Made by a program: the position numbers and the translations under genes. The notes beneath the pieces were generated by a model. The model worked only from the letters and a program-made list of their open reading frames with translations, had not been told where the DNA came from and did no database searches. A stretch of 64,000 nucleotides of DNA from Candidatus Babeliales bacterium. GTDB lineage: Bacteria > Babelota > Babeliae > Babelales > Vermiphilaceae. Position 1 is the first letter of the stretch. The number at the start of each line of letters is the position of its first letter. Shown here piece after piece: positions 25,339 to 44,249 of this stretch. The DNA lies in assembly GCA_963743635.1 (NCBI GenBank), contig CAVUQO010000003.1, positions 672,001 to 736,000 on the forward strand, read 5' to 3'.

Positions 25339-27291
25339 TCAGTTATATGAAGTACCTGCCTTCAACCATAAGCCCCATTGTGTGAGCGCACAGCTGGTGC
25401 AGCATGAACCGCAATTGGTGGAACAATTTGATGATGAGCATGATGTATCACAACAGTCACCATACGGTTGCGGCACGAAGCATACTTTGCTGGTGTTGCC
25501 AAATTCTACTTCGGCACCAAAGCCAAAATATGGCGTCCAATTTGTTTCTTCGCGATCATTCCATCCCCAATTTAGATGAGTAAATATTTTATTGGAGATG
25601 CCGCGCGCGCCTTGAAGATTGAAGTTAGATTCTCGAATTAGAATCGGTGCGCTTGAGGTATACAGTTGATTTGCAGGATATTCACTGATTGCTTGGTCAA
25701 CGTAGCGGGTTACTTCGATACCAGTAGCCGTACCGAAGGTGGCAGTTGCAGCAATTGAACTATCGGCGTACATGTTAGAAGGATCTTGTGGTGTAACGGG
25801 CGTGTAGTCGACGCCATTACGTAAGTTTGAGCCTTGATGAATGGTGGCAGTGCTATCAGTTGCAGCGACGGGGACTGGTTGCACTGCATAAGGATACATT
25901 GCATCATCTGCTACAAAGCCGTAGACACGGTTATCGCCTTTGAGGGCCCAGCAACCATATGGTTTTGATGTGCATTCATTGATGCAGATCTTTTCGCACG
26001 ATTTGCCCCAGAAGTTGTATCCAATATCCCATGCGAAATTATCCCTTTGATATTGAAAGCTAAATGCCATATCAGCTTGCGCACCAACACTGACACGTAC
26101 ATCACGTTGCGTTAAATTAGCAACGGGTGCAAATTCATTGGCAAATGCAATACCTGCATTGGATTCGCCATCAAGTACTGGGTTAGAGTTTTCATTTGAT
26201 GCAAGGCGTTGTGCAATCATGTATCGGCTACTTGTACCATTACATGCCAAATCAAAACAGCGTCTTTGATTGGTGCTAAACAAATGCATGATATTGATTT
26301 CAGCAAAGAATCCAAAGCGTGATTCATCAGTATCAGAACGCCACCACATATGATGTGCAGTTATTTGTCCGCCAAGTTCCCAAAATTTGCCATTACCTAT
26401 AATTGGTTCAAAAAGATAATCGCCTTTGCACCCATAACCAGGTCGTGTGCCAGTTGGAGCCGCAGTGTAGATACCAAGCCCAAGGTGGTAATCTCCTTCA
26501 TCATCGTTCAAAAAATTCCAGCCTAGCACGAAGCGCACTTCACCAAAACCGTTCAATGTCACTTGACTTTGATCGCATTGAGCTACAATTTGACTGCACA
26601 TGAGTGATTCCCAACATACATTATCAGGAAGTGATGGTACGCAGCCACTGCTATAATTTAAAAACTGGCTGTTGAGATCGGTAACAGTAACCGAACTTGT
26701 TTCGCTGTCATTACTGATTGTGTCTGGTCCAAAATAACCTTGGAAATAACCGACGGTGCCATTTGAGATGATGCTTTCTTTAGCATTGAGAGTCCAAGCC
26801 GTGTGTACGTATGGCGCATGAAGTCTGAAATATAATCCTTCAACCCATTGGTCAAGGCCGGTATAAAAACTAAAATCTAAAAGATAATTGGTGATGTGGG
26901 GATTAAAGCTGACAGAACTTTTAAAATCGCGTGGTAATCCAAAATAATCAGCAAGCCAATCTGAGGGTCCTCGATCATTGCGTTGCGATCCCGAAACGAT
27001 AATTGATGGTCCGCAATCACTGCATACCAAATCATTGCCAAAGAGAGCTCCAGTCAGATGATCATCTCGGAAAGTACGCGTATAAGCAAAGGTAAGATTC
27101 ATGCTTGCGTAAAATTCATCACCCAATTTTCGATTGATACCCCAATTAGGATTGTTCCAACCAACCATTTGGCGTGCAGTATCCAAACTTTGTGATCGCG
27201 GAATAATTTTGGTTACGGTACCTGCATGGGTGAAATGTACGATACTAGTGCAAGCGATTAACAGCATTAATTTTTTGGTGAATTTCTTCAT
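25339..27291 (-). CDS. P4: Cys-rich putative outer-membrane beta-barrel paralog
   Basis: Intact; all family motifs; Cys-rich penultimate loop; ends WGLWLKAGTSYN. Confidence 0.85.
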   Translation of the reverse strand: MKKFTKKLMLLIACTSIVHFTHAGTVTKIIPRSQSLDTARQMVGWNNPNWGINRKLGDEFYASMNLTFAYTRTFRDDHLTGALFGNDLVCSDCGPSIIVSGSQRNDRGPSDWLADYFGLPRDFKSSVSFNPHITNYLLDFSFYTGLDQWVEGLYFRLHAPYVHTAWTLNAKESIISNGTVGYFQGYFGPDTISNDSETSSVTVTDLNSQFLNYSSGCVPSLPDNVCWESLMCSQIVAQCDQSQVTLNGFGEVRFVLGWNFLNDDEGDYHLGLGIYTAAPTGTRPGYGCKGDYLFEPIIGNGKFWELGGQITAHHMWWRSDTDESRFGFFAEINIMHLFSTNQRRCFDLACNGTSSRYMIAQRLASNENSNPVLDGESNAGIAFANEFAPVANLTQRDVRVSVGAQADMAFSFQYQRDNFAWDIGYNFWGKSCEKICINECTSKPYGCWALKGDNRVYGFVADDAMYPYAVQPVPVAATDSTATIHQGSNLRNGVDYTPVTPQDPSNMYADSSIAATATFGTATGIEVTRYVDQAISEYPANQLYTSSAPILIRESNFNLQGARGISNKIFTHLNWGWNDREETNWTPYFGFGAEVEFGNTSKVCFVPQPYGDCCDTSCSSSNCSTNCGSCCTSCALTQWGLWLKAGTSYN

Positions 27292-27375
27292 GCCCAACTC
27301 CTTATATTTTTACTCTTATTTTTTTACACATTAAGATATACCTTTTTTTGAAGGTTTATTCTACGACGGAAGGAA

Positions 27376-29358
27376 TCAGTTGTATGATGTGCCAATCTTG
27401 AACCAGACACCCCATTGATTTGGCGCGCAATTCGGGCAGCATTCACCACTATTGCTGCAATTATTGATGGTGCGTGAGCAGCTCACTATAGTACAACCTG
27501 TTTGGAAACAATTGTTTGGGCAGCAGGGACCTTTTGCAGAACTGAGTTCAACTTCAGCACCTACGCCAAGATAGGGAACCCAGTTACGATTTTCATTTTC
27601 AGTCCACGCCCAATTAAAATGGGTAAATAATTTGTGTGAAAAACCAGTAGTGCCACCCAGATTGAAATCGCATTCCTGAATGAAAATTGGTGGATTTGAG
27701 GCATATATGGCAATTGAGCTTTCTGGAAGTATGGCAACATTATTGTCGGCAAGAGATACAATGTTATCAGCATAAAAATTAGTAACTTGCATCGGTTGTA
27801 TGGGAGTGTAATCAACTGAATGAGTTAAATTTGAACCAGCATGAATTGTCGCTTGACTATCGCTGACTGCGAGTTTAATGGCGAGTGATTGCATCGGTCC
27901 ATTATTAACAAAACCATAAACGCGTTCATCACCTTTTAATGCCCAGGTTCCCATTGATGAAGAAGAGCTGTTATTAATGCATAATTTCTCGCAACTTCTT
28001 CCCCAGAAATTATATCCAAGATCCCATTGGAAGCCATTCATGTTATAAGATAAACAGAAGGCAACATCACCTTGAGCAGAAATAGTAGAAGTGACACTCC
28101 GGCGTGTTAGATTTGCAACGGGAGCATAATTATTAGCAAATTCTAAACCAAGTGTGTCGACTGCAGATTCAAGCATAGGATATGTAGTGCCATTTGAAGA
28201 GAGTTCTTGCGCTAACATATAGCGGCTATTGATACCCGCTGAGCAAAGATCAAAACAGCGTGTTTGGCATGCTGCAAAAAGATGGGTGATATTTGCTTCA
28301 AGGTAAAATCCGAAACTTTTTTCTTCATCATCACTTCTCCACCAAATCTGATGAGCAGTTATTTGACCACCAAGTTCCCAATGTTTGCCATTACCCACAA
28401 TCGGCTCAAAAGCATAGAGTCCTGTTTTTCCTTCCCCGATACGACTACCCGTTGGGGCTGCCGCATAGATTCCAGCACCAAGATGGTAATCAGCTGCTGC
28501 ATTATCGAGGAAATTATACCCAAGTACAAAGCGTAGTTCAGCAAATCCGTTGAGTACAAGATTGTCGCATGCACAGCTATTATCAAATCTACTGCAACAC
28601 AATGGCTGCCAGGTAATCGTTCCAAGATCTGAACACGGTCCATATGTTTCGCAAGAGGCCTCTCCATATAATGCATAATTATTATTGATGCGTGGTACTG
28701 TATTGCCATTACCATATTCTAAAAATGTTCTTGTAAGATTGGCTACAGGAACATCATTGCTTGAAAAATAGCCTTGAAAGTAACCAAGAGATCCTGTTGA
28801 AGTTATGTTTTCTGTTGCATTAAGGCTCCAACGAGTATTTACATAAGGTCCATAAATTTTGAAATATAATCCATTAAGCCATCGATCGAGACCGAGATAA
28901 AGGCTGAAATCCAAAATAAAATTTTGAATACGAGGAACAAGCAAAACCGTGCTTTGATAATCACGGGGTAAACCAAAATAATCAGCGAGCCAATCATGTG
29001 GCCCCCTGTCTGATGCGGCTGAACCGGAAATATAGAGCCCTTGCGTAACAATATTCACGCCAGCCTCAATAGCGGTAGTATTACATATGCATGAGGTATC
29101 GTCGCCGAAAAGACTATATGCAAGATTTGCTGGTTTGAATGTTCGTGTGTATTCGAAGGTGAGATTGAAGCTGGTATACAAGCTATCTTGTGGATAACGA
29201 TTGATACCCCATTCAGGATTATTCCAGCCAACCATTTGGCGCGCTGCATTAAAACTTTGTGAGCGAGGAATTATTTTATTGGTGGTGCCTGCATTACAAA
29301 GATGCGCCATGCTCATAAGCATTGTAAGACAAAGTAATATGCGGTTGCATTGAGTCAT
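27376..29358 (-). CDS. P5: Cys-rich putative outer-membrane beta-barrel paralog
   Basis: Intact; family motifs; ends WGVWFKIGTSYN. Confidence 0.85.
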   Translation of the reverse strand: MTQCNRILLCLTMLMSMAHLCNAGTTNKIIPRSQSFNAARQMVGWNNPEWGINRYPQDSLYTSFNLTFEYTRTFKPANLAYSLFGDDTSCICNTTAIEAGVNIVTQGLYISGSAASDRGPHDWLADYFGLPRDYQSTVLLVPRIQNFILDFSLYLGLDRWLNGLYFKIYGPYVNTRWSLNATENITSTGSLGYFQGYFSSNDVPVANLTRTFLEYGNGNTVPRINNNYALYGEASCETYGPCSDLGTITWQPLCCSRFDNSCACDNLVLNGFAELRFVLGYNFLDNAAADYHLGAGIYAAAPTGSRIGEGKTGLYAFEPIVGNGKHWELGGQITAHQIWWRSDDEEKSFGFYLEANITHLFAACQTRCFDLCSAGINSRYMLAQELSSNGTTYPMLESAVDTLGLEFANNYAPVANLTRRSVTSTISAQGDVAFCLSYNMNGFQWDLGYNFWGRSCEKLCINNSSSSSMGTWALKGDERVYGFVNNGPMQSLAIKLAVSDSQATIHAGSNLTHSVDYTPIQPMQVTNFYADNIVSLADNNVAILPESSIAIYASNPPIFIQECDFNLGGTTGFSHKLFTHFNWAWTENENRNWVPYLGVGAEVELSSAKGPCCPNNCFQTGCTIVSCSRTINNCSNSGECCPNCAPNQWGVWFKIGTSYN

Positions 29359-29408
29359 AAGAATAACTCCCTATTAACGTCGATGGTGTGATGTTCTTTC
29401 ATGAGGCT

Positions 29409-29445
29409 ATCTTAGAAACTTTTTAATTTCGTTTGCTAGAGTTTT
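29409..29445 (-). promoter_or_regulatory. Shared paralog promoter motif upstream of P5
   Basis: AAAACTC-TAGCAA-N18-TAAGAT. Confidence 0.45.
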
Positions 29446-29508
29446 ATAAATCTTATGATTTGGGTTATATAAGCTGAGCACTTCGTTACTGGGATATTGT
29501 AAATCATC

Positions 29509-29757
29509 TTACTCCGCATCCTTCGTCACATTTTTCATGTCACGCAAGACGTGAACATGAAAAATACTCAGGACGATCGGAGGAGAGGGTGGTTTTTTAG
29601 ATGAAAGCACCTCATTACTATAGGTATAAATTTATTATATATTTCCTTATAACAGAGTATTACTTCCACAATACATCAAATTTTTTCTCCGATCGTCCTG
29701 GGTGTTCTGAGAGCGAATGTAATGAGCACGAGGAACGTGACGAAGGATGCGGAGTAA
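29509..29757. repeat. REP/REPIN-like inverted doublet, family 1
   Basis: Perfect 21-bp outer inverted repeat TTACTCCGCATCCTTCGTCAC, inner ACTCAGGACGATCGGAG / CTCCGATCGTCCTGGGT, AT-rich spacer. Confidence 0.85.
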
Positions 29758-29780
29758 AATGGCGTGCGATATTTCTAAAT

Positions 29781-29814
29781 AAAAAAGCCCCCGACTTTCA
29801 TCGAGGGCTTTTTT
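29781..29814 (-). terminator. Terminator of P6
   Basis: AAAAAAGCCCCCGA-CTTTCA-TCGAGGGCTTTTTT. Confidence 0.75.
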
Positions 29815-29893
29815 ATTTATGTGCGGTACATTATGTACCGACTGCGTCCGGCATAGTTTGCCGAGCCCGAAGGCCCGGATAAACGACGACGGA

Positions 29894-32026
29894 TCAATTG
29901 TATGATGTACCAATCTTGAACCAGATGCCCCATTGGCTGAGTGCGCAATCTATACAATTGGTTGGAGCTGGAGCACGTCGTGGAAGGCCAACGCATGGTG
30001 TAGTATCGCATGCTTGAGTTGGATAGCTATTGGAACTTGTTGCGCACGGGTTACAAGTAGAAGGGCATGGATTGCAGGTTGAGCTGCAGCTACTGCTTGA
30101 TTCCGTTTTGCATTTGATTGGATAGCAACCGCTTTCAGTTGCGCCAAATTCAATTTCACCGCCCAAGGTTACATATGGAGTCCAAGTTTCATTAGAGCAC
30201 CATTTCCAAGTGAAGTTCGTGAATGCCTTGTTAGAGGTACCGCGAGTTCCGGTGAGATCGAAATCACTTTCTTGGATGAAAATAGGTGGGTTAGAATCGT
30301 ACATTACGGCAGAACCTGCAGCAGGAGGAGTAGATGGTAGCGTCCACACAGCATTCTGATTGTTAGTCTTATCAAGCGAAGCATTATCTGCAAATGCGTT
30401 TACAGCATCTACTGGATTTACTGGAGTGTAATCAATGTTGTTGTACATATTTGAACCACTATAGATGGTAGCGCGGCTATCAGTTGCAGGAATCTTGAGT
30501 GCTACAATATCCGCTGGCGGCCTTGTAACTGAAGGAGGCACGAGTGCAAAGCCATAGACTCGTTGGTCACCCTTGAGTGCCCAATTGCCGACACTGCTTT
30601 CTTGCACTGGGCAACAGCGCTGAATGCAAAGATCTTCACACGTTCTTCCCCAGAAGTTGTAACCAATATCCCATTGGAAACCTTCTGATTGGTACGTAGC
30701 GGTCACGGCGATATCACCTTGTACCGCGATAGTGCTGTACACTGCGCGTTGAGTAATGTTTGCAACTGGTGCATACACATTACCAAATTCTAAGCCAGAC
30801 GGGTTATATTCAGTACTAATTGCTGGAGAGCTGTTGCGGTTTGATTCGAGATACTGAGCTAACATATAGCGGCTATTGCTGCCTGCTGAATCAAGATCAA
30901 AGCAACGGATTTGGCTTGCGGCAAAAAGGTGAGTTGCATTTGCTTCAAGATAAATGCCACCACTCTTAGAATCATCTTGGCTATTCCAGAAGATATAGTG
31001 AGCAGTTACTTGAGCACCAAGTTCCCAGTGCTTACCGTTACCAATGATTGGTTCAAATAAGTAGCGCCCTTGATCGCCATCGCAGCCATCTTGTTTTCCG
31101 ATGCTCGTGCCTGTTGGCGCCGCTGCATAGATACCAAGACCAACATGATATTGTTCTTCTTCATCATTCAAGAAGTTCCAACCAAGCACTGCACGAAGTT
31201 CACCAAAACCATTGCGCGTTAATGAACCGTCTTCACAATCATTCGAAATTCTGCTATTGCAGAGTGATTGCCAAGTGATGTTGCCGAGTGATGTACAACC
31301 ACACGGGCCCTCAACATCGGGTGTGCAAATGGTATTGAGACAAGCATACTCAGCAGTTGAATCAAAATCATTATTGATTGTTGGAACACAACCATTGGCA
31401 TAGTTCAAGAAGCCCTTATTCATGTTTGTGATAGGCACTGCGTTGCTTGAGAAGTAGCCTTGGAAGTATGCACCATTCGCTGCAGTTCCTGGAGATGTAA
31501 CGGTTTCTCTTGCATTCAAGTTCCATTTAGTATGTACAAATGGGCCATGAATTCTGAAATATAAACCATCAATCCAAGAATCAAGACCAGCATAGAAACT
31601 GAAATCGATGAGGAAGTTACTGATTGTCGGTTTAAAAGTTACAGTACTTTGGAAATCACGTGGTAATCCAAAATAATCACCCAACCATTCGTTCCATGCT
31701 CTATCAGGAACAGCAGAACCACTGATCTTGATAGCTAGATCATCACATTCACCGCAGACTACCGCATCACCAAAGAGACTTTGTGTCAGGCGATTGTCTC
31801 TAAATGTTTTGGTATAGGCAAACGTTGCATTGAAGCTGGCATAGTAATCATCTTGAGGATAACGGTTGATGCCCCAGTTTGGATTGTTCCAGCCAACCAT
31901 TTGGCGAGCAGCGTCGAAACTTTGTGAACGGGGAACGATTTTAGTTGTAGTGCCTGCAATACCAAAGAGGTTGCCCGCGCTGATAAGCGCAGTCAGGCAG
32001 ATTAATTGTTTTTTTAGTTGATTCAT
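29894..32026 (-). CDS. P6: Cys-rich putative outer-membrane beta-barrel paralog
   Basis: Intact, 710 aa; STCNPCPSTCNPC repeat; ends WGIWFKIGTSYN. Confidence 0.85.
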   Translation of the reverse strand: MNQLKKQLICLTALISAGNLFGIAGTTTKIVPRSQSFDAARQMVGWNNPNWGINRYPQDDYYASFNATFAYTKTFRDNRLTQSLFGDAVVCGECDDLAIKISGSAVPDRAWNEWLGDYFGLPRDFQSTVTFKPTISNFLIDFSFYAGLDSWIDGLYFRIHGPFVHTKWNLNARETVTSPGTAANGAYFQGYFSSNAVPITNMNKGFLNYANGCVPTINNDFDSTAEYACLNTICTPDVEGPCGCTSLGNITWQSLCNSRISNDCEDGSLTRNGFGELRAVLGWNFLNDEEEQYHVGLGIYAAAPTGTSIGKQDGCDGDQGRYLFEPIIGNGKHWELGAQVTAHYIFWNSQDDSKSGGIYLEANATHLFAASQIRCFDLDSAGSNSRYMLAQYLESNRNSSPAISTEYNPSGLEFGNVYAPVANITQRAVYSTIAVQGDIAVTATYQSEGFQWDIGYNFWGRTCEDLCIQRCCPVQESSVGNWALKGDQRVYGFALVPPSVTRPPADIVALKIPATDSRATIYSGSNMYNNIDYTPVNPVDAVNAFADNASLDKTNNQNAVWTLPSTPPAAGSAVMYDSNPPIFIQESDFDLTGTRGTSNKAFTNFTWKWCSNETWTPYVTLGGEIEFGATESGCYPIKCKTESSSSCSSTCNPCPSTCNPCATSSNSYPTQACDTTPCVGLPRRAPAPTNCIDCALSQWGIWFKIGTSYN

Positions 32027-32211
32027 AAGAATAACTCCTTTTTATAAAGATATACGTTAAGGGAAATGGTTAACCGCATTAATGTTGGCGATATAATTTC
32101 CACTTTTAAATCAATACAATCTCCTTTCCATTGGTTTGTCTTAGCCTCGTTTTAAATTTTTCACTCTCTACTTTCTTACCAAGTAATGATTTTTTTTTCT
32201 AGAGTTTTTTT
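32027..32211 (-). promoter_or_regulatory. Promoter motif plus conserved double-SD leader of P6
   Basis: TAGAAA-N17-TAAGAA with an A9 tract; GAAAGGAG upstream SD; GGAAAT...ATTTCC stem; AAGGAGTTATTCTTATG start. Confidence 0.6.
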
Positions 32212-32344
32212 ATTCTAGTTCGCTAAAAGCGATAAATAACAGATTGTTGGCGTGCTCGAAATGGAATAATTTTACACAGTTTGCCGAATGAGAGCGCCGG
32301 ATCGTCGCTCATGTACCATCGAAGAGCCCCCGATTTTCACCCTC

Positions 32345-32381
32345 AAAAAAAGGGCCTCCGGTTTTAATCGGAGGCCCTCTT
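32345..32381 (-). terminator. Terminator of P7
   Basis: AGGGCCTCCG...CGGAGGCCCT stem with an A-tract (U-tract on the minus strand). Confidence 0.75.
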
Positions 32382-32431
32382 AGTACTTAGTTTGTTTGCT
32401 GAGATATGTTAGTTACAACACATCCAGATTA

Positions 32432-34513
32432 TTAATTGTAAGATGTACCAACCTTAAACCAGATTCCCCACTGTGTGAGAGCAACGTTTGAGCAACATTG
32501 TTGCAAGCGTTCACAGCTTGGAGTTGGTTCGTAATTGTAGGATGGTGTAAAGCAACCGGTATTGCAGCTGCTTGTACTACAACCAGTATTGCATGGATTG
32601 CAAGTGCTCGTGCTGCAACTGTTGTTGTTACAACAATCCGGGCTACCATTTGAACCAAATTCAACTTCACCGCCTAAGCTAACATATGGAGTCCATTTGC
32701 TGTCGCAGCAATCAGGCCATGCCCAATTAATGTTCGTGAAGAACTTATTGGAGATACCGCGAGTGCCGGTCATGTTGAAATCACTTTCAGTAATGAGCAC
32801 AGTAGGGTTTGAAGTATATATGGTTGCCGCAGTGTTTGTAAATGTAGCAACAACAAGTGGGTGGCTGGCGCCGGTAGTCGTATAATCGAATGCAGCAACA
32901 TTATTATCAACGCCTTGGTTGACCGTATTGCCTAAACTAGCAACGTTGTTTGAGCCACCATGGATAGTTGCGCCGCTATCAGTTGCAGCAAGTGGAACAG
33001 GAACACCAGGATTCACAGGATCTGTGGCAGGATTCAGACCATAATCAAAGCCGTATACATACGCAGTACCTTTAAGCGCCCATGTGCCCGGTATTACTGG
33101 ACAACAATCGGTGCTTATTTTGATGTGTTCGCAGCTTCTGCCCCAGAAGTTATACCCAACATCCCATTGGAATCCGCCTGAACGGTAAGCAAGGCTGATA
33201 GCCAAGTCGCCTTGAGCACCAATAGTTGAAGTGATTTCACGGCGAGTCAAGTTAGCAACTGGTGCGTATTCGTTTGCAAATTGCAAGAATGTAGGATCTA
33301 CACTTGGATTAAGAACTGGTTGAGGAAGAGGAACCGTTGGTGCTTGCGTAGCGAGTAAGTACTCTTCAGCAAAAGATTCCAATCGCTGTGCAATCATATA
33401 ACGGCTGCTGCTGCCTGCTGAACACAAGTCAAAGCAACGATCTTGGTTTGCACCAAAAAGATGGGTGACGTTTGCTTCAAAGTAGATGCCGAATGTTCTA
33501 TCTTCATCTTCACTCTTCCACCAAATATGATGGCCGGTGATTTGAGCACCAAGTTCCCAATGTTTACCGTTACCGATAATTGGTTCAAACAAGTATCTGC
33601 TGGTACCAACGCGGGTGCCGGTTGGAGCTGCTACGTAAACGCCAATGCCTAAATGGCAATCGCGATCTTCGCGTTCGCTAAAGAAGTTACGACCAAGGAT
33701 GAAACGTAATTCACCAAATCCATTGCGCGTAAATGCATTTGCATCGCAATCACAGCTATTGATCATTCTGCTGCAGCAGAGTGATTGCCATGTAATGTCA
33801 TTATCGAGATATGGATTATAGTCTGAATTGGTAATGTCTGGTGTGCATCCATTTGCCCAAGACAAGAAGTTGGTAGTGCCATTTCCCGCTGGAACTACTG
33901 TACCAGAGAAATAACCTGCTGGGTACAGTGCATTAATAGACGCTAGGTCTTGAGTTTGTGATGTTGAAGCCGGATAGCCGACACATTCAGTCGCATTCAA
34001 ATTCCAGTTGGTATGCACAAATGGCCCATGGATTCTGAAGTATAAACCATCAATCCATGCATCAAGACCTGCATAGATACTGAAATCTAAGAGGAAGTTG
34101 CTGATGCGAGGATTAAAGTTCACGGTGCTTTGGAAATCCATTGGTAAACCAAAGTTTTCCGCTAACCAATCAGTTGGTGCTCTATCAGGAACCAATGAAC
34201 CGCTGACTTTGAAACCAAGATCATTGTCACAGCCACTGCATATTAAATCATCACCAAAGAGGCATTTGGTAAGATGATTATCTCTGAAGGTGCGTGTGTA
34301 TGCAAACGTAAGATTGAAGCTTGTGTAGTATTGATCATCGGCAGCTTCACGATTTATGCCCCACACTGGATTGTTCCAGCCAACCATTGTACGGGCAGCA
34401 TCAAAACTTTGTGATCGGGCAACAATGTTTGTTGTTGTATTTGACGCAGCAACAAGGTGCGCTGCGTGTACTAATGCCACAAGGCACAGTAACTGTTTTT
34501 TTAGTTGATTCAT
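32432..34513 (-). CDS. P7: Cys-rich putative outer-membrane beta-barrel paralog
   Basis: Intact, 693 aa; CNTGCSTSSCNTGC tract; ends WGIWFKVGTSYN. Confidence 0.85.
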   Translation of the reverse strand: MNQLKKQLLCLVALVHAAHLVAASNTTTNIVARSQSFDAARTMVGWNNPVWGINREAADDQYYTSFNLTFAYTRTFRDNHLTKCLFGDDLICSGCDNDLGFKVSGSLVPDRAPTDWLAENFGLPMDFQSTVNFNPRISNFLLDFSIYAGLDAWIDGLYFRIHGPFVHTNWNLNATECVGYPASTSQTQDLASINALYPAGYFSGTVVPAGNGTTNFLSWANGCTPDITNSDYNPYLDNDITWQSLCCSRMINSCDCDANAFTRNGFGELRFILGRNFFSEREDRDCHLGIGVYVAAPTGTRVGTSRYLFEPIIGNGKHWELGAQITGHHIWWKSEDEDRTFGIYFEANVTHLFGANQDRCFDLCSAGSSSRYMIAQRLESFAEEYLLATQAPTVPLPQPVLNPSVDPTFLQFANEYAPVANLTRREITSTIGAQGDLAISLAYRSGGFQWDVGYNFWGRSCEHIKISTDCCPVIPGTWALKGTAYVYGFDYGLNPATDPVNPGVPVPLAATDSGATIHGGSNNVASLGNTVNQGVDNNVAAFDYTTTGASHPLVVATFTNTAATIYTSNPTVLITESDFNMTGTRGISNKFFTNINWAWPDCCDSKWTPYVSLGGEVEFGSNGSPDCCNNNSCSTSTCNPCNTGCSTSSCNTGCFTPSYNYEPTPSCERLQQCCSNVALTQWGIWFKVGTSYN

Positions 34514-34758
34514 AAGAATAACTCCTTTTTATAAGAACATACGTTAAGGGAAATGGGTGACAGCAGTAAAATTGATGCGATAATTTCCACTTTTAAATCA
34601 ATACAATCTCCTTTCATTAGTTGATCTGCCTGTCTTCATTTCTCTTCGACATGACGCCGCGTCTTAACGCGTCTCGCGCGCAGACGGGTGGGCACTGTTT
34701 TATTTTTTCACTCTATACCTTCTTATCAAGTAATTAATTTTTTTTCCAGAGTTTTTTT
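34514..34758 (-). promoter_or_regulatory. Promoter motif plus conserved double-SD leader of P7
   Basis: TGGAAA-N17-TAAGAA with an A8 tract; leader closely similar to the P6 leader. Confidence 0.6.
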
Positions 34759-34887: not shown

Positions 34888-34923
34888 AAAAAAAGAGCCC
34901 CTCAATTTTGTCGAGGGGCTCTT
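34888..34923 (-). terminator. Terminator of P8
   Basis: AAGAGCCCCTC...GAGGGGCTCTT with an A-tract. Confidence 0.75.
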
Positions 34924-34947: not shown

Positions 34948-37044
34948 TCAGTTATAAGATGTACCGATTTTAAACCATACACCCCATTGGGTGAGCGCAA
35001 CGTTGGTGCAGCATGGTTTGAGTGTGTCGCAGACATTTGCTGCAGGATTGGGTTGTAGTTATAGTTGCAAGGACTGCATACAGTTTCGCAGCTTGTGTTA
35101 CAACCGGTATTGCAACTTGTAGTGCAGCCAGTGTTGCAACTTGTGTTACAATCATTGTTGCAGCTTCCATTGCTTCCACCGCCAAATTCAACTTCAGCAC
35201 CGATACCAACATACGGAGTCCATTTGCTATCCTTCATATCAGGCCATGCATAATTGAAATGCATGAACAGCTTATTCGAGATACCACGAGTACCGAGTAA
35301 ATCGAAATCATTTTCCTGATGAGGACTGGTTCATTTGAGGTGTAGACTGGAGGTATGGTTGACGGGGTAGCAGGGTCTGGGTTTGGGAGTATGTCTAGCA
35401 GCAAGAAAATGAGGGGTTACTGCTTTTACGCTATTATCAGCATAAAAGTTGACGGGCCCCGTTGGATTTGGACCAGTATAAACCACATCATTTGCCATAT
35501 TAGAGCCTTGATGAATGTTTGCTTGGCTATCAGTAGCAGCGAGGCTCATTGCGAGGCTATTGTAGAGCGAGAGAGACTTGTAAATCCATACACGCGTTGA
35601 TCGCCCTTAAGTGCCCATTGGCCGAGCGCAGGATCGCAGCAATCATTATTTAAGCGCAATTCTTCGCAGCTTCTGCCCCAAAAGTTATAACCCAAATCGA
35701 ATTGGAAATTACCTGATTGGTATGCAAAGCTGATCGCTAAATCGCCTTGAGCGGCAATGGTAGAGATAACATTGTGCGGGTAATATTGGCAACCGGTGCA
35801 TACACGTTAGCAAATTCTAGACCGGCAGTATCAACACGTGTTGAAAGTGATGGATAACTATTGCGGTTAGTATCGAGTTGTTCTGCTAACATATAGCGGC
35901 TATTGTTTCCAGCTGAGCAAAGATCAAAGCAACGGATTTGGTTTGCACCAAAAAGATGCGTCACATTTGCTTCAAGATACATGCCAAGACTACTTGTTCA
36001 TCTTCTTCGTTTCTCCAGCCGATATAGTGCGCCGTTACTTGACCACCAAGTTCCCAGTGCTTACCGTTACCATACGATTGGCTCAAAAAGATAACGTCCT
36101 TTGCTATTGCAATCATCTTGGCTGCCAACGCGTGTGCCAGTCGGTGCACCAACGTAAAGGCCAAGGCCTGCATGGTAATCGCCTGCATCATCATTTACGA
36201 AATTATAACCGAGTATGAAGCGAAGTTCGCCAAAGCCATTGCGAGAAAGGCCTTGTCCATCGCATCCGCATTCAGGGCTGATCTTGCTGCAGCAAAGTGA
36301 TTGCCAGGTGATATCACCGAGTGGCGAGCAGGGGGTAGAGGTAAATTCATGAGTTCCTGCGAGGCAGTACTCTTCACCATACAAATCATAATCATTATTA
36401 ATTGTTGGCACTGCACCATTTGCATAGCTCAAGAAGCTTTGGTTAAGTTGCGATGCTGGCACTACGTTGCTTGAGAAATAGCCTTGGAAGTAACCCGTAG
36501 TTCCAGTCGTAATATTACATTCTTGTGCATTCAAATTCCACTGAGTATGCACGAATGGCCCATAGATCTTGAAGTACATGCCTTCATGCCATGAATCAAG
36601 CCCTGCATAGAAACTGAAATCTAAAATATAGTTGCTGATGCTTGGTTTAAATGAAACGGTACTTTGAAAGTCGCGCGGTAATCCGAAATAATCAGCCAAC
36701 CAATCATTTGCACCACGATTTGCTACTGCAGAACCACTGATATGGATTGATGAGCCTTCATCGCAGGTGCCGCATATGAGATCATCACCAAAGAGCGATC
36801 GTGCCAGGCGATTGTCTCTGAATGTGCGTGAATATTCAAACGTTATATTGAAACTGCCGTAATCATCGTCTTGCGGTTTACGGTTGATGCCCCAGAATGG
36901 ATTATCCCATCCGACAATCTGACGTGCTGCGTTAAAACTTTGTGATCGCGGGACGATCTTTGACGTGGTTGCAGTATTACCAGTGAGGTTCACTGCACTT
37001 ACTAATGCGGTAATGCATAGTAATTGTTTGTTTAGTTGCTTCAT
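34948..37044 (-). CDS. P8: Cys-rich putative beta-barrel paralog, near-identical to P9 (several frameshifts)
   Basis: The first ~190 aa are identical to P9; family motifs continue across frames to KIGTSYN, stop at 34948. Confidence 0.8.
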
Positions 37045-37097
37045 TCGAACAACTCCTAGAATTGAGGATGGATGATATGTTTTTTATTGACTACATC

Positions 37098-37137
37098 ATC
37101 CTAGAACAAGTAAGTTTTTTTTTCTAGAGTTTTTTTT
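37098..37137 (-). promoter_or_regulatory. Shared paralog promoter motif upstream of P8
   Basis: AAAAAAACTC-TAGAAA-N17-TAGGAT with an A9 tract. Confidence 0.6.
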
Positions 37138-37166
37138 ATTTTGTCTAAAATATGCGAGGAAATAGT

Positions 37167-37195
37167 AAAGCCCCCAACTTTCGTCGGGGGCTTTT
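37167..37195 (-). terminator. Terminator of P9
   Basis: AAAGCCCCC...GGGGGCTTTT. Confidence 0.7.
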
Positions 37196-37219
37196 GCGTA
37201 CCATCAAACGCTTTGTGCA

Positions 37220-39320
37220 TTAATTATAAGAAGTACCGATCTTGAACCATACGCCCCATTGGGTGAGCGCAACGTTGGTGCAGCATGGTTTGAGTGTTGA
37301 GCAAACGTTTGCTGCAGGATTCGGGTTGTAATTATAGTTGCAAGGACTGCATACAGTTTCGCAGCTTGTGCTACAACCAGTATTGCAACTTGTGCTACAA
37401 TCATTATTGCAGCTTTCATTGCTTCCACCGCCAAATTCAACTTCAGCACCGATGCCAACATACGGAGTCCATTTGCTATCCTTCATATCAGGCCGTGCAT
37501 AATTGAAATGCATGAACAACTTATTTGAGATACCGCGTGTGCCGAGTAAATCAAAATCATTTTCACTGATTAGCACAGGTTGATTAGAGGTATAGATGGC
37601 TGGAGGAAAGACGTCCGAGTTTGTAGGGTTTGGGAGAATATATGTTGGATTATTTTTAAGTGATTGACTATTGTCTGCATAAAAGTTCACTGGCGCTGTA
37701 GGGTTTGTGCCGGTATAGGCAACATTATGCGCCATATTTGAACCAGTATGTATCGTTGCTTGACTGTCAGTTGCCGGAAGGCTCATGGCAAGAGCAGTAT
37801 CAACAAGAACTTTGTTGGTAAAACCATAGACGCGTTGATCGCCCTTAAGTGCCCATTGGCCGATCGCTGGTGCGCAGCAATCATTGTTCAAGCGCAACTG
37901 TTCGCAGCTTCTGCCCCAGAAGTTATAGCCAAGATCGAATTGGAAATTACCTGATTGGTATGCGAAGCTGAATCGCTAAATCGCCTTGTGCGCCAATGGT
38001 AGAGGTAACATTGTGGCGGGTGATATTTGCAACCGGTGCATACACATTGGCAAATTCTAATCCAAGAGAATCATAAAGCTGCCCACCGCCAGTGCCAAGC
38101 GTAGTATCATTTAATCCTGGATAGCTATTGCGGTTGTCATGCAGCTTTTCAGCTAACATATAGCGGCTATTATTACCTGCTGAGCAAAGATCAAAGCAAC
38201 GGATTTGGTGTGCACCAAAAAGATGCGTCACATTTGCTTCAAGATACATGCCGAAGCTTCTATCATCTTCTTCATTTCTCCAGCCGATATAATGCGCCGT
38301 TACTTGCCCACCAAGTTCCCAGTGTTTACCGTTACCTACGATTGGCTCAAAAAGATAGCGTCCACTGCTATTGCAATCATCTTGACTGCCAACGCGTGTG
38401 CCAGTCGGTGCACCAACGTAAAGGCCAAGGCCTGCATGGTAATCGCCTGCATCATCGTTTACGAAATTGTAACCGAGTACGAAGCGAAGTTCGCCAAAGC
38501 CATTACGAGAAAGGCCTTGTCCATCACAGCCGCATTCAGGACTAATTTTGCTGCAGCAGAGTGATTGCCAGGTGATATCACCAAGTGGTGAGCAAGTTCC
38601 GTTTTCAGTCCGCGGACCAAATGGGAAAGTTCCTGCGAGACAATACTCTTCACCATACAAATCATAATCATTGTTGATTTCAGGCACCGCGCCATTTGCA
38701 TAGCTCAAGAAGCTTTGGTTAAGTTGCGAAGCTGGCACCACGGCGCTTGAGAAATAGCCTTGGAAGTAACCAGTAGTTCCAGTCGTAATATTGCATTCTT
38801 GTGCATTCAAATTCCACTGAGTATGCACGAATGGTCCATAGATCTTGAAGTACATGCCTTCATGCCATGAATCAAGCCCTGCATAGAAACTGAAATCGAG
38901 AATGTAGTTACTAATACTTGGCTTAAATGAAACGGTACTTTGAAAGTCGCGCGGTAATCCGAAATAATCAGCTAACCAATCATTTGCACCACGATTTGCT
39001 ACTGCAGAACCGCTGATATGGATTGATGAGCCTTCATCGCAGGTGCCGCATATGAGATCATCGCCAAAGAGCGATCGTGCCAGACGATTGTCTCTGAATG
39101 TGCGTGAATATTCAAACGTTATATTGAAACTGCCGTAATCATCGTCTTGCGGTTTACGGTTGATGCCCCAGAACGGATTATCCCATCCGACAATCTGACG
39201 TGCTGCGTTAAAACTTTGTGATCGTGGGACGATTTTTGACGTGGTTGCAGTATTACCAGTGAGGTTCACTGCACTTACTAATGCGGTAATGCATAGTAAT
39301 TGTTTGTTTAGTTGCTTCAT
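37220..39320 (-). CDS. P9: Cys-rich putative beta-barrel paralog (one frameshift near 37970)
   Basis: Two ORFs join at GDLAI|SFAYQSG; AAGGAG RBS before ATG 39320. Confidence 0.83.
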
Positions 39321-39528
39321 CAGACAACTCCTTTTATTGATGGTTGACAATATGCTTTTGATAGTACGTGATGATCATATACAGGTTTCGAATTTTATTG
39401 CTACATTTTTTTTGAATTACTCAGTCTCGCTATGCTCTCTCCTCGGGCGAATTGGGAAATAATACTTTTTTGAAGAGCAATGCTCTTTATCTTTGCTTAG
39501 ATTCTGGCGAGGTTAAATATATATCAGT

Positions 39529-39562
39529 AAAAGAAACCTCCGACTTTCATCGGAGGTTTCTT
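39529..39562 (-). terminator. Terminator of P10
   Basis: AAGAAACCTCCGA-CTTTCA-TCGGAGGTTTCTT. Confidence 0.75.
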
Positions 39563-39612
39563 AGTACTTAGTTTTGCTTGCGTTTGCGTTCAATTATAGA
39601 GAACAAACACTA

Positions 39613-41670
39613 TTAATTATAAGATGTACCAATCTTAAACCATACGCCCCATTGGCTGAGTGCGATGTTTGAGCAGCAGGTGCTGATAACTGGGCATGGC
39701 GTTGTGTTGCATGCTGGTGCAGGTGTGCAGCTGGTTTCGCAGCCGGTATTGCAACCAGTGTTGCAACTGGTGCTGCAGCCATTATCGTATCCACAGCCAT
39801 TATTGCATTTTTTTCCGCCGCCACATTCTGCTTCAAAACCGATACCAACGTATGGAGTCCACTTGCTGTCTTTCACTTCTGGCCATGCATAGTTAAAGTG
39901 GGTAAAGACTTTGTTTGAGATACCGCGAGTACCTGCAAGATCAAAATCATTTTCTTGAATTAGCACTGGTTGTTCAGAAGTGTAGATACCAACTGTTCCG
40001 AGTGGGTATGTGGTGATAGTAGAAAGGGTACCAACGTGAGCAAGAGACAAGCTATTATCAGCATACAAGTTTTTTGGCTGAGTTGGTACTTGGCCAGCAT
40101 AGCTCACATTGTTTGCCAGATTTGAACCGGTGTGGATGTTTGCTTGGCTATCAGTTGCAGGTATGCTGATAGCGAGTGATGTTCCGTGTGCACCACCATT
40201 GGTAGCGAAACCATACACGCGTTGGTCACCTTTAAGTGCCCATTGACCTTGTATGCCTAAGCAGCAATTATCCTCAATGCGCAGTTTTTCGCAGCTGCGG
40301 CCCCAGAAGTTGTAACCAAGATCCCATTGGAAGTTACCCGATTGGTATGCAAAGCTGATCGCTAAATCACCTTGAGCACCAATTGATGAAACTACATTGC
40401 GGCGAGAGATATTTGCAACGGGTGCATATTCCTTTGCAAATTCTAGACCAAGGCTATCAATGGTTGCGGCGTGGGTTGGGAAAGTAGCCGCGTTAAGTCC
40501 TGGATAGCTATTGCGATTTGAATCAAGGCGTTCAGCTAACATGTAGCGGCTATTATTGCCCGCTGAGCAAAGATCTAAGCAGCGAATTTGGCACGCGTCG
40601 AAAAGATGCGTTACGTTCGCTTCAAGATACATTGTAAAGCTCTTGTCATTCGCATCATTTCTCCACCAGACTTGGTGAGCAGTTATTTGACCGCCAAATT
40701 CCCAGTGTTTACCGTTACCAACGATTGGTTGGAATAAGTAACGTCCTTCGCCATTGCAATCATCGCTACCAACGCGTGAACCGGTTGGTGCTGCCGCGTA
40801 TGCGCCAATACCAATATGGTAATCGCCTGCTTCATCATTTATGAAATTGTAGCCGAGTACGAAACGAAGTTCGCCAAAGCCATTGCGAGACATGCCTTGT
40901 CCTTCACAGCAAGATTCAGGGCTGATTTTGCTGCAGCAGAGTGATTGCCACGTGATATCACCAAGTGGTGAGCAGGCTGGGTGGAGTGTGTAACATGTAT
41001 CTTCACCATACAAATCATAATCATTGTTGATGTACGGCGTGCAACCATTTGCATAGCTCAAGAAGCTGCTGTTAAGCTGTGATGCAGGAACGGTGTTGCT
41101 TGAGAAATACCCTTGGAAGTAACCAGTAGTTCCTTGCGTGATTGGACATTCTTCAGCATTCAAATTCCATTTAGTGTGTACAAAAGGTCCGTAGATCTTG
41201 AAGTACATACCATCAACCCATGCATCGAGGCCAGCGTAGTAGCTGAAATCGAGAATGTAGTTAGTGATTGTAGGTTTGAATGAAACGGTACTTTGGAAAT
41301 CACGTGGAAGTCCAAAATAATCCGCTAACCAATCATTTTCTCCACGATTTGCTACTGCAGAACCGCTAATTTGGAGTGATGAACGATCATCGCATTCATT
41401 GCAATTTAAATCATCACCAAAGAGTGCGTATGCAATACGGTTAGCTCTGAATGTGCTTGAATATTCGAATGCGATATTAAAGCTTGAATAGAATTCACCT
41501 TCTGGTTTACGGTTAATACCCCACTCCATATTATCCCATCCGACGATTTGACGTGCAGCGTTAAAACTTTGCGATCGGGGAACAATATTAGTTACGGTTC
41601 GCTCACCAAAAAGGTGAGTTGCGCTTACTAAAGCAGTAAGGCACAATAATTGTTTTTTTAGTTGATTCAT
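39613..41670 (-). CDS. P10: Cys-rich putative outer-membrane beta-barrel paralog
   Basis: Intact; start MNQLKKQLLC after AAGGAG; CSTSCNTGCNTGCETSC tract. Confidence 0.85.
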   Translation of the reverse strand: MNQLKKQLLCLTALVSATHLFGERTVTNIVPRSQSFNAARQIVGWDNMEWGINRKPEGEFYSSFNIAFEYSSTFRANRIAYALFGDDLNCNECDDRSSLQISGSAVANRGENDWLADYFGLPRDFQSTVSFKPTITNYILDFSYYAGLDAWVDGMYFKIYGPFVHTKWNLNAEECPITQGTTGYFQGYFSSNTVPASQLNSSFLSYANGCTPYINNDYDLYGEDTCYTLHPACSPLGDITWQSLCCSKISPESCCEGQGMSRNGFGELRFVLGYNFINDEAGDYHIGIGAYAAAPTGSRVGSDDCNGEGRYLFQPIVGNGKHWEFGGQITAHQVWWRNDANDKSFTMYLEANVTHLFDACQIRCLDLCSAGNNSRYMLAERLDSNRNSYPGLNAATFPTHAATIDSLGLEFAKEYAPVANISRRNVVSSIGAQGDLAISFAYQSGNFQWDLGYNFWGRSCEKLRIEDNCCLGIQGQWALKGDQRVYGFATNGGAHGTSLAISIPATDSQANIHTGSNLANNVSYAGQVPTQPKNLYADNSLSLAHVGTLSTITTYPLGTVGIYTSEQPVLIQENDFDLAGTRGISNKVFTHFNYAWPEVKDSKWTPYVGIGFEAECGGGKKCNNGCGYDNGCSTSCNTGCNTGCETSCTPAPACNTTPCPVISTCCSNIALSQWGVWFKIGTSYN

Positions 41671-41851
41671 AAGAATAACTCCTTTTTGCAAGAACATATT
41701 TTCAGGGAAATGGACCCTCGCGTTATCGTGTGCGAGCAATTTCCACGGTTAAATGAATACAATCTCCTTTCTTTGGTTAATTTTGGTCATGATTAATTTT
41801 TGTTCACTGTATACCTTCTTAACAAGTTATGAATTTTTTTTCTAGAGTTTT
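41671..41851 (-). promoter_or_regulatory. Promoter motif plus conserved double-SD leader of P10
   Basis: TAGAAA-N17-TAAGAA with an A8 tract; GAAAGGAG; GGAAAT..CTCGC..GCGAG..ATTTCC stem. Confidence 0.6.
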
Positions 41852-41958
41852 GTAAAAGAATATTGATTGGGTCGTTCAATTGGATGAAATATTGAAATAT
41901 ATTTTTGCGTATGATAGAAGGCTGTGAGTGCCGTTGCACAGAACATAAAGAGCCCGCG

Positions 41959-42254
41959 CCCTTCGATACGCGCGTGCCATGCTACCTAAGGATGAGATGA
42001 ATATTATGATAACGCGAACTCGATCTAAGGAATTCACATTAAGTCATGCTTTTTATAATAGAAATAGCCATTGGAATATTAGCTTTCGCGTTAGGCAATC
42101 ATGCCTTTAAATGAAACTAATCCGCACTATAATTAAAGGGCCCCCGATTTTCATCGGAGGCTCTTTTTAGTACTTCGTTTTGGTTGCTTTCTTATAATTA
42201 ATTATAAGATGTAACCGCTCATCCCGAGTAGCGCGGGACGTGCGTACCGAGGGG
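41959..42254. repeat. Degenerate family-1 REP doublet enclosing the P11 terminator
   Basis: CCCTTCGATACG...GGATGAG (41959-41996) and CCGCTCATCCCGAG...CGTACCGAGGGG (42215-42254); the latter abuts the P11 stop. Confidence 0.7.
42135..42168 (-). terminator. Terminator of P11
   Basis: AAAGGGCCCCCGA-TTTTCA-TCGGAGGCTCTTT. Confidence 0.65.
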
Positions 42255-44249
42255 TCAATTGTATGATGTACCAACTTTGAACCATACACCCCATTGGCTG
42301 AGGGCTACGTTCGAGCAACAGTTGTTGCTTGAGCAAGTGTTGATTGAGCAATTGTTGTTGTAATAGCCAGTATTGCAACCGGTATTGCACGTTGTGTTGC
42401 AACCAGTGTTGCAGCTTGCTTCACAACAATCATTGTCGCGGCTTGAACCAAATTCAACTTCAGCACCTACGCCAACATAGGGAGTCCATTTACAATCTTT
42501 ATCACGATCAGCCCATGCCCAGTTCAAGTGAGTGAAGATTTTATTTGAGATACCACGGGTACCAGTCAAATTGAAATCACATTCACTAATCATCACCGGC
42601 TTTTCAGAGGTGTAGATTTGGGTGCTGTTTAATGGAAGATTAGTGATGGTACTAGTATCAGTATTTATGAAACCACCAAATGCAGCTGTTGGATTATCCC
42701 CATAGAAGTTGGTTGGGTTAGAATCGATGGTGTAGTTAGCGCCATTGCAAAGGTTTGAACCAGTATGGATATTTGCTTGGCTGTTAGTTGCAGGAATGCT
42801 CACTGCAAGACTGCCATCAAAACCATACACTCGTTGGTCGCCCTTTAGAGCCCATTTGCCAATCGGTTGTGCACAACAATCATCTTGGATGCACAAGTTT
42901 TCACAGCTTCTGCCCCAGAAGTTGTAACCAAGATCCCATTGGAAGTTGCCTGAGCGGTATGCAAGGGTGAACGCAAGGTCCCCTTGTGCGCCGATTGTTG
43001 AGCGTACTTCTCTGCGAGTAATGTTTGCAACGGGAGAGTATTGGTTGCCAAATTGAAGACCAAGGCTATCAGTAGTAGTGTTTAAAAGAGGTGTGCTATT
43101 GGTGTTTGAATTCAATAATTCTGCTAACATATAGCGGCTATTGCTGCCTGCTGAACACAGATCAAAGCAACGTGTTTGGTTTGCACCAAAAAGATGCGTT
43201 ATGTCTGCTTCAAGATACCAGCCAAAGCTCTTATCTCCATCTTCACTTTCCCACCAGCGATGATGCGCCGTTACTTGTGCGCCAAGTTCCCAATGCTTAC
43301 CGTTACCCACGATAGGTTGGAATAAATAGCGTCCTTCGCCATTGCAATCATCAGTGCCTACGCGCGTACCAGTTGGTGCAGCAACGTAGATACCGATACC
43401 AACGTGATATTTGCCATCTTCATCATTCAAGAAGTTGTAACCAAGGATAAAGCGAAGTTCGGCAAAACCATTTGCGCTTGCGCCGCCGCATTCGCAATCA
43501 TTGCTGATTTTGCTGCAGCAGAGTGAGTTCCAAGTAATGCTACCCAGTGGAGAACAATCTTCGTCGTCTAGGCAGTAAGTTTGAAGACCATAAGTGTTAT
43601 CATTATTAATTGATGGAACGCAACCGTTAGTATAATTCAAGAATTTGGTATTCAGGTTTGCAACCGGAACTGTGTTGCTTGAGAAGTAACCTTGGAAATA
43701 TCCCATTGATCCTGCATTGCTTACACATTCTTCTGCATTTAAATTCCAGCGTGTGTGTACATAAGGACCATAGATCTTGAAGTAAAGACCATCAACCCAG
43801 TTATCAAGGCCAGCATAGAAACTAAAATCTAAAATGTAGTTGGTGATGCTTGGTTTGAAAGTGACAGTACTTTGAAAATCCATTGGGAGTCCGAAATAAT
43901 CAGCCAACCATGCATTGTTTGGTCTGCTTGGTACTGCAGAACCGCTGATTTGAATTGCCGATGCATCATCGCATACGCCGCAAATTAAATCATTACCGAA
44001 GAATGCATAGGCCAGGCTATTATCTCTGAAGGTGCGTGAATATTCAAATGCGAGATTGAGGCTTGCATACCATTTATCTTCAGGTTTGCGATTGATACCC
44101 CAGTTCACGTCATCCCAACCAACTATTTGGCGAGCTGCGTTAAAACTTTGCGAGCGAGGAACGATATTTGTGGTCGTGCCATTACCCATGAGGGTTACTG
44201 TGCTGATGAGCGCAGTGAGGCACATTAATTTTTTACTGAGATGATTCAT
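42255..44249 (-). CDS. P11: Cys-rich putative outer-membrane beta-barrel paralog
   Basis: Intact, 664 aa; CNTGCNTTCNTGCNTG tract; ends WGVWFKVGTSYN. Confidence 0.85.
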   Translation of the reverse strand: MNHLSKKLMCLTALISTVTLMGNGTTTNIVPRSQSFNAARQIVGWDDVNWGINRKPEDKWYASLNLAFEYSRTFRDNSLAYAFFGNDLICGVCDDASAIQISGSAVPSRPNNAWLADYFGLPMDFQSTVTFKPSITNYILDFSFYAGLDNWVDGLYFKIYGPYVHTRWNLNAEECVSNAGSMGYFQGYFSSNTVPVANLNTKFLNYTNGCVPSINNDNTYGLQTYCLDDEDCSPLGSITWNSLCCSKISNDCECGGASANGFAELRFILGYNFLNDEDGKYHVGIGIYVAAPTGTRVGTDDCNGEGRYLFQPIVGNGKHWELGAQVTAHHRWWESEDGDKSFGWYLEADITHLFGANQTRCFDLCSAGSNSRYMLAELLNSNTNSTPLLNTTTDSLGLQFGNQYSPVANITRREVRSTIGAQGDLAFTLAYRSGNFQWDLGYNFWGRSCENLCIQDDCCAQPIGKWALKGDQRVYGFDGSLAVSIPATNSQANIHTGSNLCNGANYTIDSNPTNFYGDNPTAAFGGFINTDTSTITNLPLNSTQIYTSEKPVMISECDFNLTGTRGISNKIFTHLNWAWADRDKDCKWTPYVGVGAEVEFGSSRDNDCCEASCNTGCNTTCNTGCNTGYYNNNCSINTCSSNNCCSNVALSQWGVWFKVGTSYN

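Follow-up and report, generated by a model that had tools for sequence, protein, structure and literature searches.

Tandem CxxxC tracts in the last long loop of a predicted outer-membrane barrel family of Dependentiae: a candidate disulfide-forming surface module

Here we have analysed a stretch of 64,000 nucleotides (nt) from the genome of a Candidatus Babeliales bacterium (assembly GCA_963743635.1, contig CAVUQO010000003.1, positions 672,001 to 736,000 of the forward strand; hereafter, the window), the minus strand of which carries a tandem array of paralogous genes, P1 to P12, encoding proteins of 610-710 amino acids (aa) that each have a signal peptide. Several of these proteins contain, shortly before their C-terminal end (...QWGxWxKxGTSYN), a tract of chained CxxxC units in which successive cysteines are four residues apart. 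In 12-stranded outer-membrane beta-barrels that would be specific to Dependentiae, the last long loop (L6) probably has these tracts as its variable core, and we favour, with moderate confidence, the view that the tracts constitute a repeat-generated, outward-facing and disulfide-forming surface-loop module. The Dependentiae are widespread, almost uncultured protist parasites whose envelope is poorly understood. A large unannotated family in which about one-fifth of L6 is cysteine with strict spacing, together with a second barrel family that also has such a tract, therefore provides a testable candidate for the hardening or shielding of their surface, and it would at the same time illustrate how a selected structural motif can be generated by the expansion of repeats.

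The tracts were searched for by applying a six-frame regular expression for cysteines spaced four residues apart to the whole window. An earlier note on this DNA had quoted cysteine tracts for P8, P9, P10, P11 and P6, and all five are present, at the places it gave and on the minus strand (Table 1; the letters of the P6 tract are STCNPCPSTCNPC). In each paralog the tract lies, as described there, between EVEFG and the terminal QWGxWxK strand, and the loop of the P1 remnant (14335-14838), said to lack the tract, is indeed cysteine-free (EGIRPSDLPPLKNTRS). The tract unit is C-[N/D/S/T]-T-[S/G], four residues that are encoded by imperfect tandem repeats of 12, 24 or 36 nt. The spacing of the cysteines thus agrees with the 12-nt unit that had been proposed, but the highest scores of Tandem Repeats Finder go to a 24-nt period, with 3.6 copies in P8 (35081-35166) and 2.6 in P9 (scores 88-89; 72% and 84% matches, respectively), and its 12-nt rows are weaker (scores 36-51). 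The DNA alignment of P8 and P9 has a single gap, of 24 nt, inside the tract, which accounts for the two four-residue units by which P9 had been said to be shorter; taken together with the best period, this gap indicates that the unit that changed comprises eight residues, or two CxxxC steps, so that P9 is one such unit shorter. Chains of at least three CxxxC units are unlikely to arise by chance: in open reading frames (ORFs) of at least 150 aa the 1.45-Mb genome has four of them, all in outer-membrane barrel genes, compared with a mean of 0.18 and a maximum of 1 in 50 within-protein shuffles. The cysteine content of the paralogs as a whole (3.5-4.7%) is likewise high compared with that of the proteome (median 1.28%, 95th percentile 3.46%).

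The barrel family is widespread among the relatives of this bacterium. Of 41 related genomes, the source among them, 40 gave matches (24/24 of the same family and 15/16 from other families of the order), usually as several copies in tandem, and a protein search returned 1246 homologs, all of them unnamed or "hypothetical" and, where the organism is given, from Dependentiae/Babeliales. Pfam gave nothing above cut-off for eight proteins (E up to 0.1), NCBIfam gave no match for four, and a profile search of the PDB sequences gave 0 matches. Sub-cut-off matches to PF13557 (Phenol_MetA_deg) were seen in two of the eight proteins, whose scores of 20.3 and 16.2 bits fall short of the 22 bits required, and in none of the other six; ESM Atlas returned unnamed clusters only, and the nearest named cluster has PF13557 in 21% of its members. 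Neither the barrel family nor the tract is described in the full-text Dependentiae/Babela literature that was searched; passages of PMC6561590 and PMC4776705 on these subjects are silent on both, and the terms cysteine, disulfide and porin are never tied to envelope proteins there. Cysteine-rich envelope barrels of intracellular bacteria are an already known kind of protein; the family and its loop module appear to be new.

An AlphaFold (AF2) model of P10, made with 71 homologs, has a predicted local distance difference test score (pLDDT) of 86.6 and a predicted template modelling score (pTM) of 0.85. According to VIA-align, run on this predicted model, its top structural match is the COG4313 channel 4rl8_C (Z 22.2, root-mean-square deviation 2.9 Å, 261/268 residues), closely followed by FapF (5o65_B, Z 21.6) and then by autotransporter beta-domains, KdgM and NanC, and Foldseek gives an E-value of 3e-8 to 12-stranded barrels of the COG4313/FapF type. 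At the N-terminus, where a barrel of this type would have a segment that plugs the lumen, the model has a short helix (residues 38-42), and the structural alignments begin at residues 37-44. The family thus has its predicted 12-stranded fold in common with the COG4313 channel (PDB 4rl8) and FapF (5o65, 5o67, 5o68), nearly the whole target chain being aligned. However, it is about 2.5 times longer than these proteins, has six large loops and 20-36 cysteines that are nearly all located in loops, lacks an amyloid-secretion or phenol-pathway gene context, and occurs as tandem paralog arrays.

When the secondary structure of P10 is parsed as 12 strands, five connections of 2-8 aa alternate with six of 29-122 aa (L1 52, L2 81, L3 29, L4 44, L5 122 and L6 55 aa), and the tract is held by L6 (residues 618-672 of the model). 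Outer-membrane barrels generally have their termini and short turns in the periplasm, and their long loops lie outside. By strand parity and this general rule, L6, being the last long loop, should face outward, which is the predicted answer to the question raised in the earlier note of the side of the membrane on which the loop lies. In 71 aligned homologs, 84% of the mature cysteines are located in L1-L6, whereas the strands account for 8% and the turns for 6%; most strands contain 0-0.8% cysteine (b3 2.8%, b7 4.3%), compared with 19.6% for L6, which has a median of 9 cysteines in 46 aa. The spacing of successive L6 cysteines was counted in the 85 of 120 homologs that the motif parser handled, with within-loop shuffles as the expectation. 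CxxxC is threefold enriched (213 observed, 70 expected) and CxxC is also more frequent than expected (129 versus 90), whereas CC is less frequent (88 versus 139) and CxC is depleted sixteenfold (7 versus 113). Among the inner triplets, NTG, NTS, DTS and NTD are the most frequent. As this spacing rule persists where the DNA repeats have long diverged, it suggests that selection acts on the protein pattern, and that the pattern is not just inherited with the repeats.

The module is tied neither to L6 nor to one family. In the relative G023, a paralog (L010:1495-3510) has a tract in L1, in which CGTSCGTSCGTY is repeated, in addition to its L6 tract; the L1 array, with a 36-nt period, 2.8 copies and 96% matches, shows most clearly that tandem expansion has probably been recent. 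In the genome studied here, a CEDTCSTDCNDTCSDTCSDTC tract is present in a different protein, P0121 (G000:C3:267073-268146, minus strand; locus L022:1074-2147), for which no Pfam domain was found in 39 homologs. The model of P0121 is a 10-stranded barrel (pLDDT 80, pTM 0.77) that resembles OpcA (Z 21.9) and OmpT/Pla (Z 18-19), and by strand parity its tract is predicted to lie in an outward loop; members of its family have cysteine tracts at different loops, or none. A profile comparison of P0121 with the 12-stranded family gave a match that is confined to the tract, so that we read the two barrel families as unrelated and the tract as having arisen independently. Further in-frame tracts were found in several relatives with a degenerate DNA pattern (five cysteines at 12-nt spacing), which gave 143 matches in 29 of the 41 genomes against 30 for the reversed control; this pattern is noisy because of out-of-frame GCT/TGC runs and therefore served only for finding examples. 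Another genome of the same order has a very long stretch (G038:C26:1179-1565) in which 12-nt units encode C-E-[D/Y]-S.

Table 1. Paralogs, CxxxC tracts and terminator-like hairpins of the tandem array in the window (positions of the window; Cys, cysteines)
Feature	Positions	Strand	Remarks
P1 + P2	14335-17913	-	fragmented remnants of two paralogs; P1 L6 without cysteine
P3, divergent paralog, 686 aa	17962-20022	-	L6 18001-18105, 6 Cys, chain absent
P4, 652 aa	25339-27297	-	L6 25378-25494, 9 Cys, long CxxxC chain absent
P5, 660 aa	27376-29358	-	L6 27415-27537, 9 Cys
P6, 710 aa	29894-32026	-	L6 29933-30139, 69 aa, 11 Cys, including CSSTCNPCPSTCNPC
P7, 693 aa	32432-34513	-	L6 32471-32650, 60 aa, 11 Cys
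P8	34951-37044	-	stops and frameshifts; six indels relative to P9, a third copy and public contigs
P8 tract	35076-35162	-	CNNDCNTSCNTGCTTSCNTGCNTSCETVC then SPC; 7 chained CxxxC units
P9	37220-39350	-	two ORFs in the assembly: 37947-39350 and 37220-37897
P9 tract	37349-37411	-	CNNDCSTSCNTGCSTSCETVC then SPC; 5 chained units
P10 (called protein P0001, 685 aa; the one modelled)	39613-41739	-	predicted 12-stranded barrel; L6 39652-39816
P10 tract	39727-39777	-	CSTSCNTGCNTGCETSC; 4 chained units
P11, 664 aa, 31 Cys	42255-44249	-	L6 42294-42443
P11 tract	42375-42425	-	CEASCNTGCNTTCNTGC; 4 chained units
P12, divergent paralog, 614 aa	44651-46495	-	short L6 44693-44782, 6 Cys, chain absent
Terminator-like hairpin, 13 pairs	34893-34923	-	directly after P8 stop
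Similar hairpin	37167-37194	-	after P9
Similar hairpin	42140-42161	-	after P11
Similar hairpin	44592-44627	-	after P12

Based on these observations, we propose the following scenario. The genes lie in tandem arrays, several of them with their own terminator-like hairpin behind, and the number of units would shift through tandem duplication, slippage or unequal exchange between paralogs, while selection would preserve the cysteines together with their i/i+4 spacing. Once the protein has been exported and the barrel assembled, the loop would be exposed at the surface, where its cysteines may oxidise to give a compact disulfide-bonded cap, with bonds within L6 and to the cysteine-bearing loops L1, L2 and L5, and possibly some to neighbouring molecules. 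Such a cap would lend stiffness and protection to the surface of the infectious particle outside the host, and its bonds could be reduced inside the host. High-sulfur keratin-associated proteins offer an analogy, in that their short S/T/P/G-rich cysteine repeats act via dense disulfide bonding; these are, however, eukaryotic intracellular matrix proteins without homology to the Dependentiae family. An extracellular particle forms part of the lifestyle according to the relevant passages of PMC6561590, and Babeliales genomes are described there and in those of PMC4776705 as lacking lipopolysaccharide (LPS) synthesis genes, which is why the surface may need such support. In the genome studied here LpxC was not found, and two Omp85 genes and one OmpA-type peptidoglycan-binding domain are present.

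Several observations weigh against a disulfide-forming module at the outer surface. By strand parity L6 should lie outside, but L6 itself is modelled at pLDDT <50 (residues 622-653 and 658-662), and the model therefore gives neither its structure nor its cysteine pairings; in addition, about 6% of the cysteines are located in predicted periplasmic turns. As regards the expanded Dsb genes that the earlier note had suggested looking for, DsbA (PF01323, PF13462) and DsbB (PF02600) were not found in the genome, which is an estimated 85% complete. What the genome does encode is one VKOR, a DsbB substitute (130 aa, CxxC, 81 bits), one membrane protein that is DsbD-like and includes a thioredoxin domain, and five thioredoxin-like proteins, four of which have a signal peptide and a CPPC, CGAC or CAAC motif and the fifth of which lacks CxxC. 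VKOR is present in 18/41 relatives, compared with 40/41 for the barrel family, and was for that reason rejected as an obligatory partner. One of the four thioredoxin-like proteins with such a motif (G000:C3:182467-185403, 978 aa) starts with a signal peptide and a thioredoxin domain (CAAC), which are followed by long internal repeats rich in alanine and lysine and containing CCC motifs.

The repeats themselves also call for caution. In-frame tandem-repeat size variation is a general class of variation in bacterial surface proteins, and the tracts resemble it in that whole units change within a predicted exposed segment and differ among paralogs. The tract repeats of the window are, however, imperfect (65-84% matches) and not near-perfect as is typical of a hypermutable contingency locus. 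Two studies of peat and soil metagenomes include eight public runs with the region, which are available as contigs only, and in the four runs that were compared no tract-length alleles were found, although contigs drop rare variants. The P10 tract is spanned by contigs of runs X2 and X3 and the P11 tract by contigs of X1 and X2, with no indel listed inside either; for P8, the contigs cover at least 35098-35146, where no indel is listed. An apparent P9 allele that is 36 nt shorter, seen at a contig joint in X1, X2 and X4, was rejected, since its sequence is exactly that of a third P8/P9-like paralog, a fragmented gene outside the window (G000:C3:814547-816632; locus L023) with a tract 36 nt shorter than that of P9 and 60 nt shorter than that of P8. 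It was the sole candidate for the tract-length variants that the earlier note had suggested looking for. There is hence no indication of fast, ongoing length change in this organism, and the imperfect units and the lack of polymorphism among the contigs lend no support to a fast-switching locus. Of the proposal that tract length changes by slippage, the change by whole units is supported, by the differences among the paralogs and by the 96% array of the relative; length change has been observed among paralogs and relatives and not within a population.

The last of the adverse observations concerns the number of cysteines. In the 71 homologs, mature cysteine totals are even in 38 and odd in 33, an absence of even bias that fits poorly with a purely intramolecular, fully paired fold, and many of the proteins should hold an unpaired cysteine. 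The choice between a mainly intramolecular, knotted cap and an intermolecular coat therefore leans, by this crude test, to some unpaired or intermolecular cysteines. That the tracts mainly serve to link neighbouring barrels, or barrels and other cysteine-rich surface proteins, through disulfide bonds is possible but somewhat unlikely. Besides the parity and the extracellular stage, such a coat would be in keeping with the recurrence of the tracts in two barrel families and with the other cysteine-rich exported proteins that the genome encodes. It would also be in keeping with a preprint (10.1101/2021.05.31.446380) reporting that ten Dependentiae genomes have no homologues of any of four systems that tether the outer membrane. 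On the other hand, the genome does have the OmpA-type domain mentioned above, and peptidoglycan synthesis has been described for the phylum (PMC6561590, in the passages at hand). A count of cysteine parity over all exported proteins of the genome (126 even, 154 odd) was discarded, the crude signal-peptide filter used to define them (312/1263 ORFs; 1.40% cysteine versus 1.49% in the rest) being too unspecific.

A disulfide-linked coat brings to mind the chlamydiae, and the earlier note had drawn this comparison. As regards lifestyle and cysteine richness it is apt, since the family, like MOMP and the complex of the chlamydial outer membrane (COMC), consists of cysteine-rich, abundant-looking barrels of a bacterium that is obligately intracellular and has an extracellular stage; expansions of paralogs have been reported from environmental chlamydiae as well, according to title and abstract listings. 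As regards topology it fails. According to the relevant passages of PMC13254160 (2026), MOMP is a 10-stranded barrel with few cysteines, of which the cross-linking ones are periplasmic or transmembrane, and the COMC network is periplasmic, so that for a coat of the kind considered above the analogy is not structural. The Dependentiae barrels, unlike MOMP, have 12 strands, CxxxC tandem tracts and 84% of their cysteines in predicted outer loops, a predicted topology opposite to the chlamydial one, and the Pfam family of chlamydial MOMP gave no match to eight of the proteins at E up to 0.1. A more far-reaching version, which we consider unlikely, is that CxxxC ladder loops, grafted by repeats onto several unrelated barrel families, make up an outward disulfide-linked protein shell that replaces LPS and tethers in the extracellular particle and is unlocked by reduction at host entry. 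The shell would then be a second, topologically inverted invention of the chlamydial strategy.

It may also be argued that the tracts are a tolerated low-complexity expansion, in which slippage in an insertion-accepting loop carried the cysteines along and tract length has no specific role. The loops of outer-membrane barrels generally accept insertions, the tracts range from 0 to 7 units among the paralogs (chains are absent in P1, P3 and P12), and the tract is disordered in the model. Nevertheless, this explanation appears quite unlikely, because the spacing rule, with its excess of CxxxC and near-absence of CxC, persists in diverged sequences with dissimilar DNA repeats and because the tract has an independent origin in an unrelated barrel family, both of which argue for selection at the protein level.

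A surface-loop module with so many cysteines could in principle bind metals instead of forming disulfides, as the earlier note had considered, with thiolate clusters holding Zn, Cu or Fe at the cell surface. The high cysteine density of L6 would allow this, and small cysteine-packed proteins are encoded in the genome. One of these (G000:C2:502198-502713) has 26 cysteines in 171 aa, arranged in CxxCxxxC heptad-like repeats after a hydrophobic N-terminus, and no Pfam match; presumably it resembles the four-helix-bundle cysteine-rich proteins of the copper-storage type. CxC is, however, typical of metallothioneins, in which CxC and CxxC predominate, and in L6 it is nearly absent (7 against the 113 expected). 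Moreover, N, T, S, G and D occupy the positions between the cysteines, the 12 most frequent residues of L6 do not include histidine, and an oxidising extracellular location would favour disulfides over thiolates. Metal binding is accordingly disfavoured, and we hold it to be very unlikely. The similar CxxxC spacing with T and S in SCIFF precursor peptides brings to mind thioether cross-links made by an enzyme, as in ranthipeptides/SCIFF, on the Cys/Thr/Ser-rich tract. Such links are hardly credible, as no SPASM domain was found in the genome and the enzyme would have to act on a Sec-exported barrel precursor of 700 aa, unlike known maturase substrates.

As for the array itself, the copies in the window, remnants included, number about a dozen, and more members lie past its end. 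Some of the copies are broken (Table 1). The six indels of P8 are absent from the contigs of both studies, from P9 and from the third copy, and the base at position 37970 in P9 is absent from public contigs; its removal would put both P9 ORFs in one frame. It should be noted that, of 33 sites, the contig letters match P9 at 10 and the third copy at 20, so that some of the contigs derive from paralogs or other strains. The breaks in P8 and P9 may reflect errors made in assembling a duplicated region, or a peculiarity of the strain. An FtsK-like gene of the window (47394-49861, plus strand) is likewise divided into three ORFs (47394-48296, 48435-48866 and 49043-49861) and, together with the broken P1, P2, P8 and P9, suggests assembly indel errors or widespread pseudogenisation. 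With respect to the hairpins, a scan for promoters and terminators gave an overall number of sites that is not above that of shuffles, and only the placement of the hairpins behind stop codons is suggestive.

Some further genes, in and beyond the window, deserve mention. The array is adjoined by a gene on the plus strand (window 23290-25212) for a 640-aa signal-peptide protein with a weak, below cut-off match of the pectinesterase type, possibly a beta-helix surface protein. Next to the third P8/P9-like copy there is a gene (C3:816763-817383) for a thioredoxin-like protein that has a signal peptide and a Gly/Tyr-rich tail but lacks CxxC. Elsewhere in the genome, a 74-aa signal-peptide protein with a C-terminal CQKPCEKPCGTPCGQKPCCGK tract (G000:C3:450505-450729, locus L024) represents a small secreted cysteine-rich peptide, and the members of a family of signal-peptide proteins of 490-1014 aa with 22-48 cysteines (G000:C2:149918-157176 and C2:435292-436770) are built of repeated ...KAYVCN... 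blades and end in ...VTVTQSC or ...VTVTNYC, adding to the cysteine-rich exported proteins. Finally, two further divergent members of the barrel family are encoded on the plus strand, at window positions 62976-63998 and onward (G000:C3:735051-738528).

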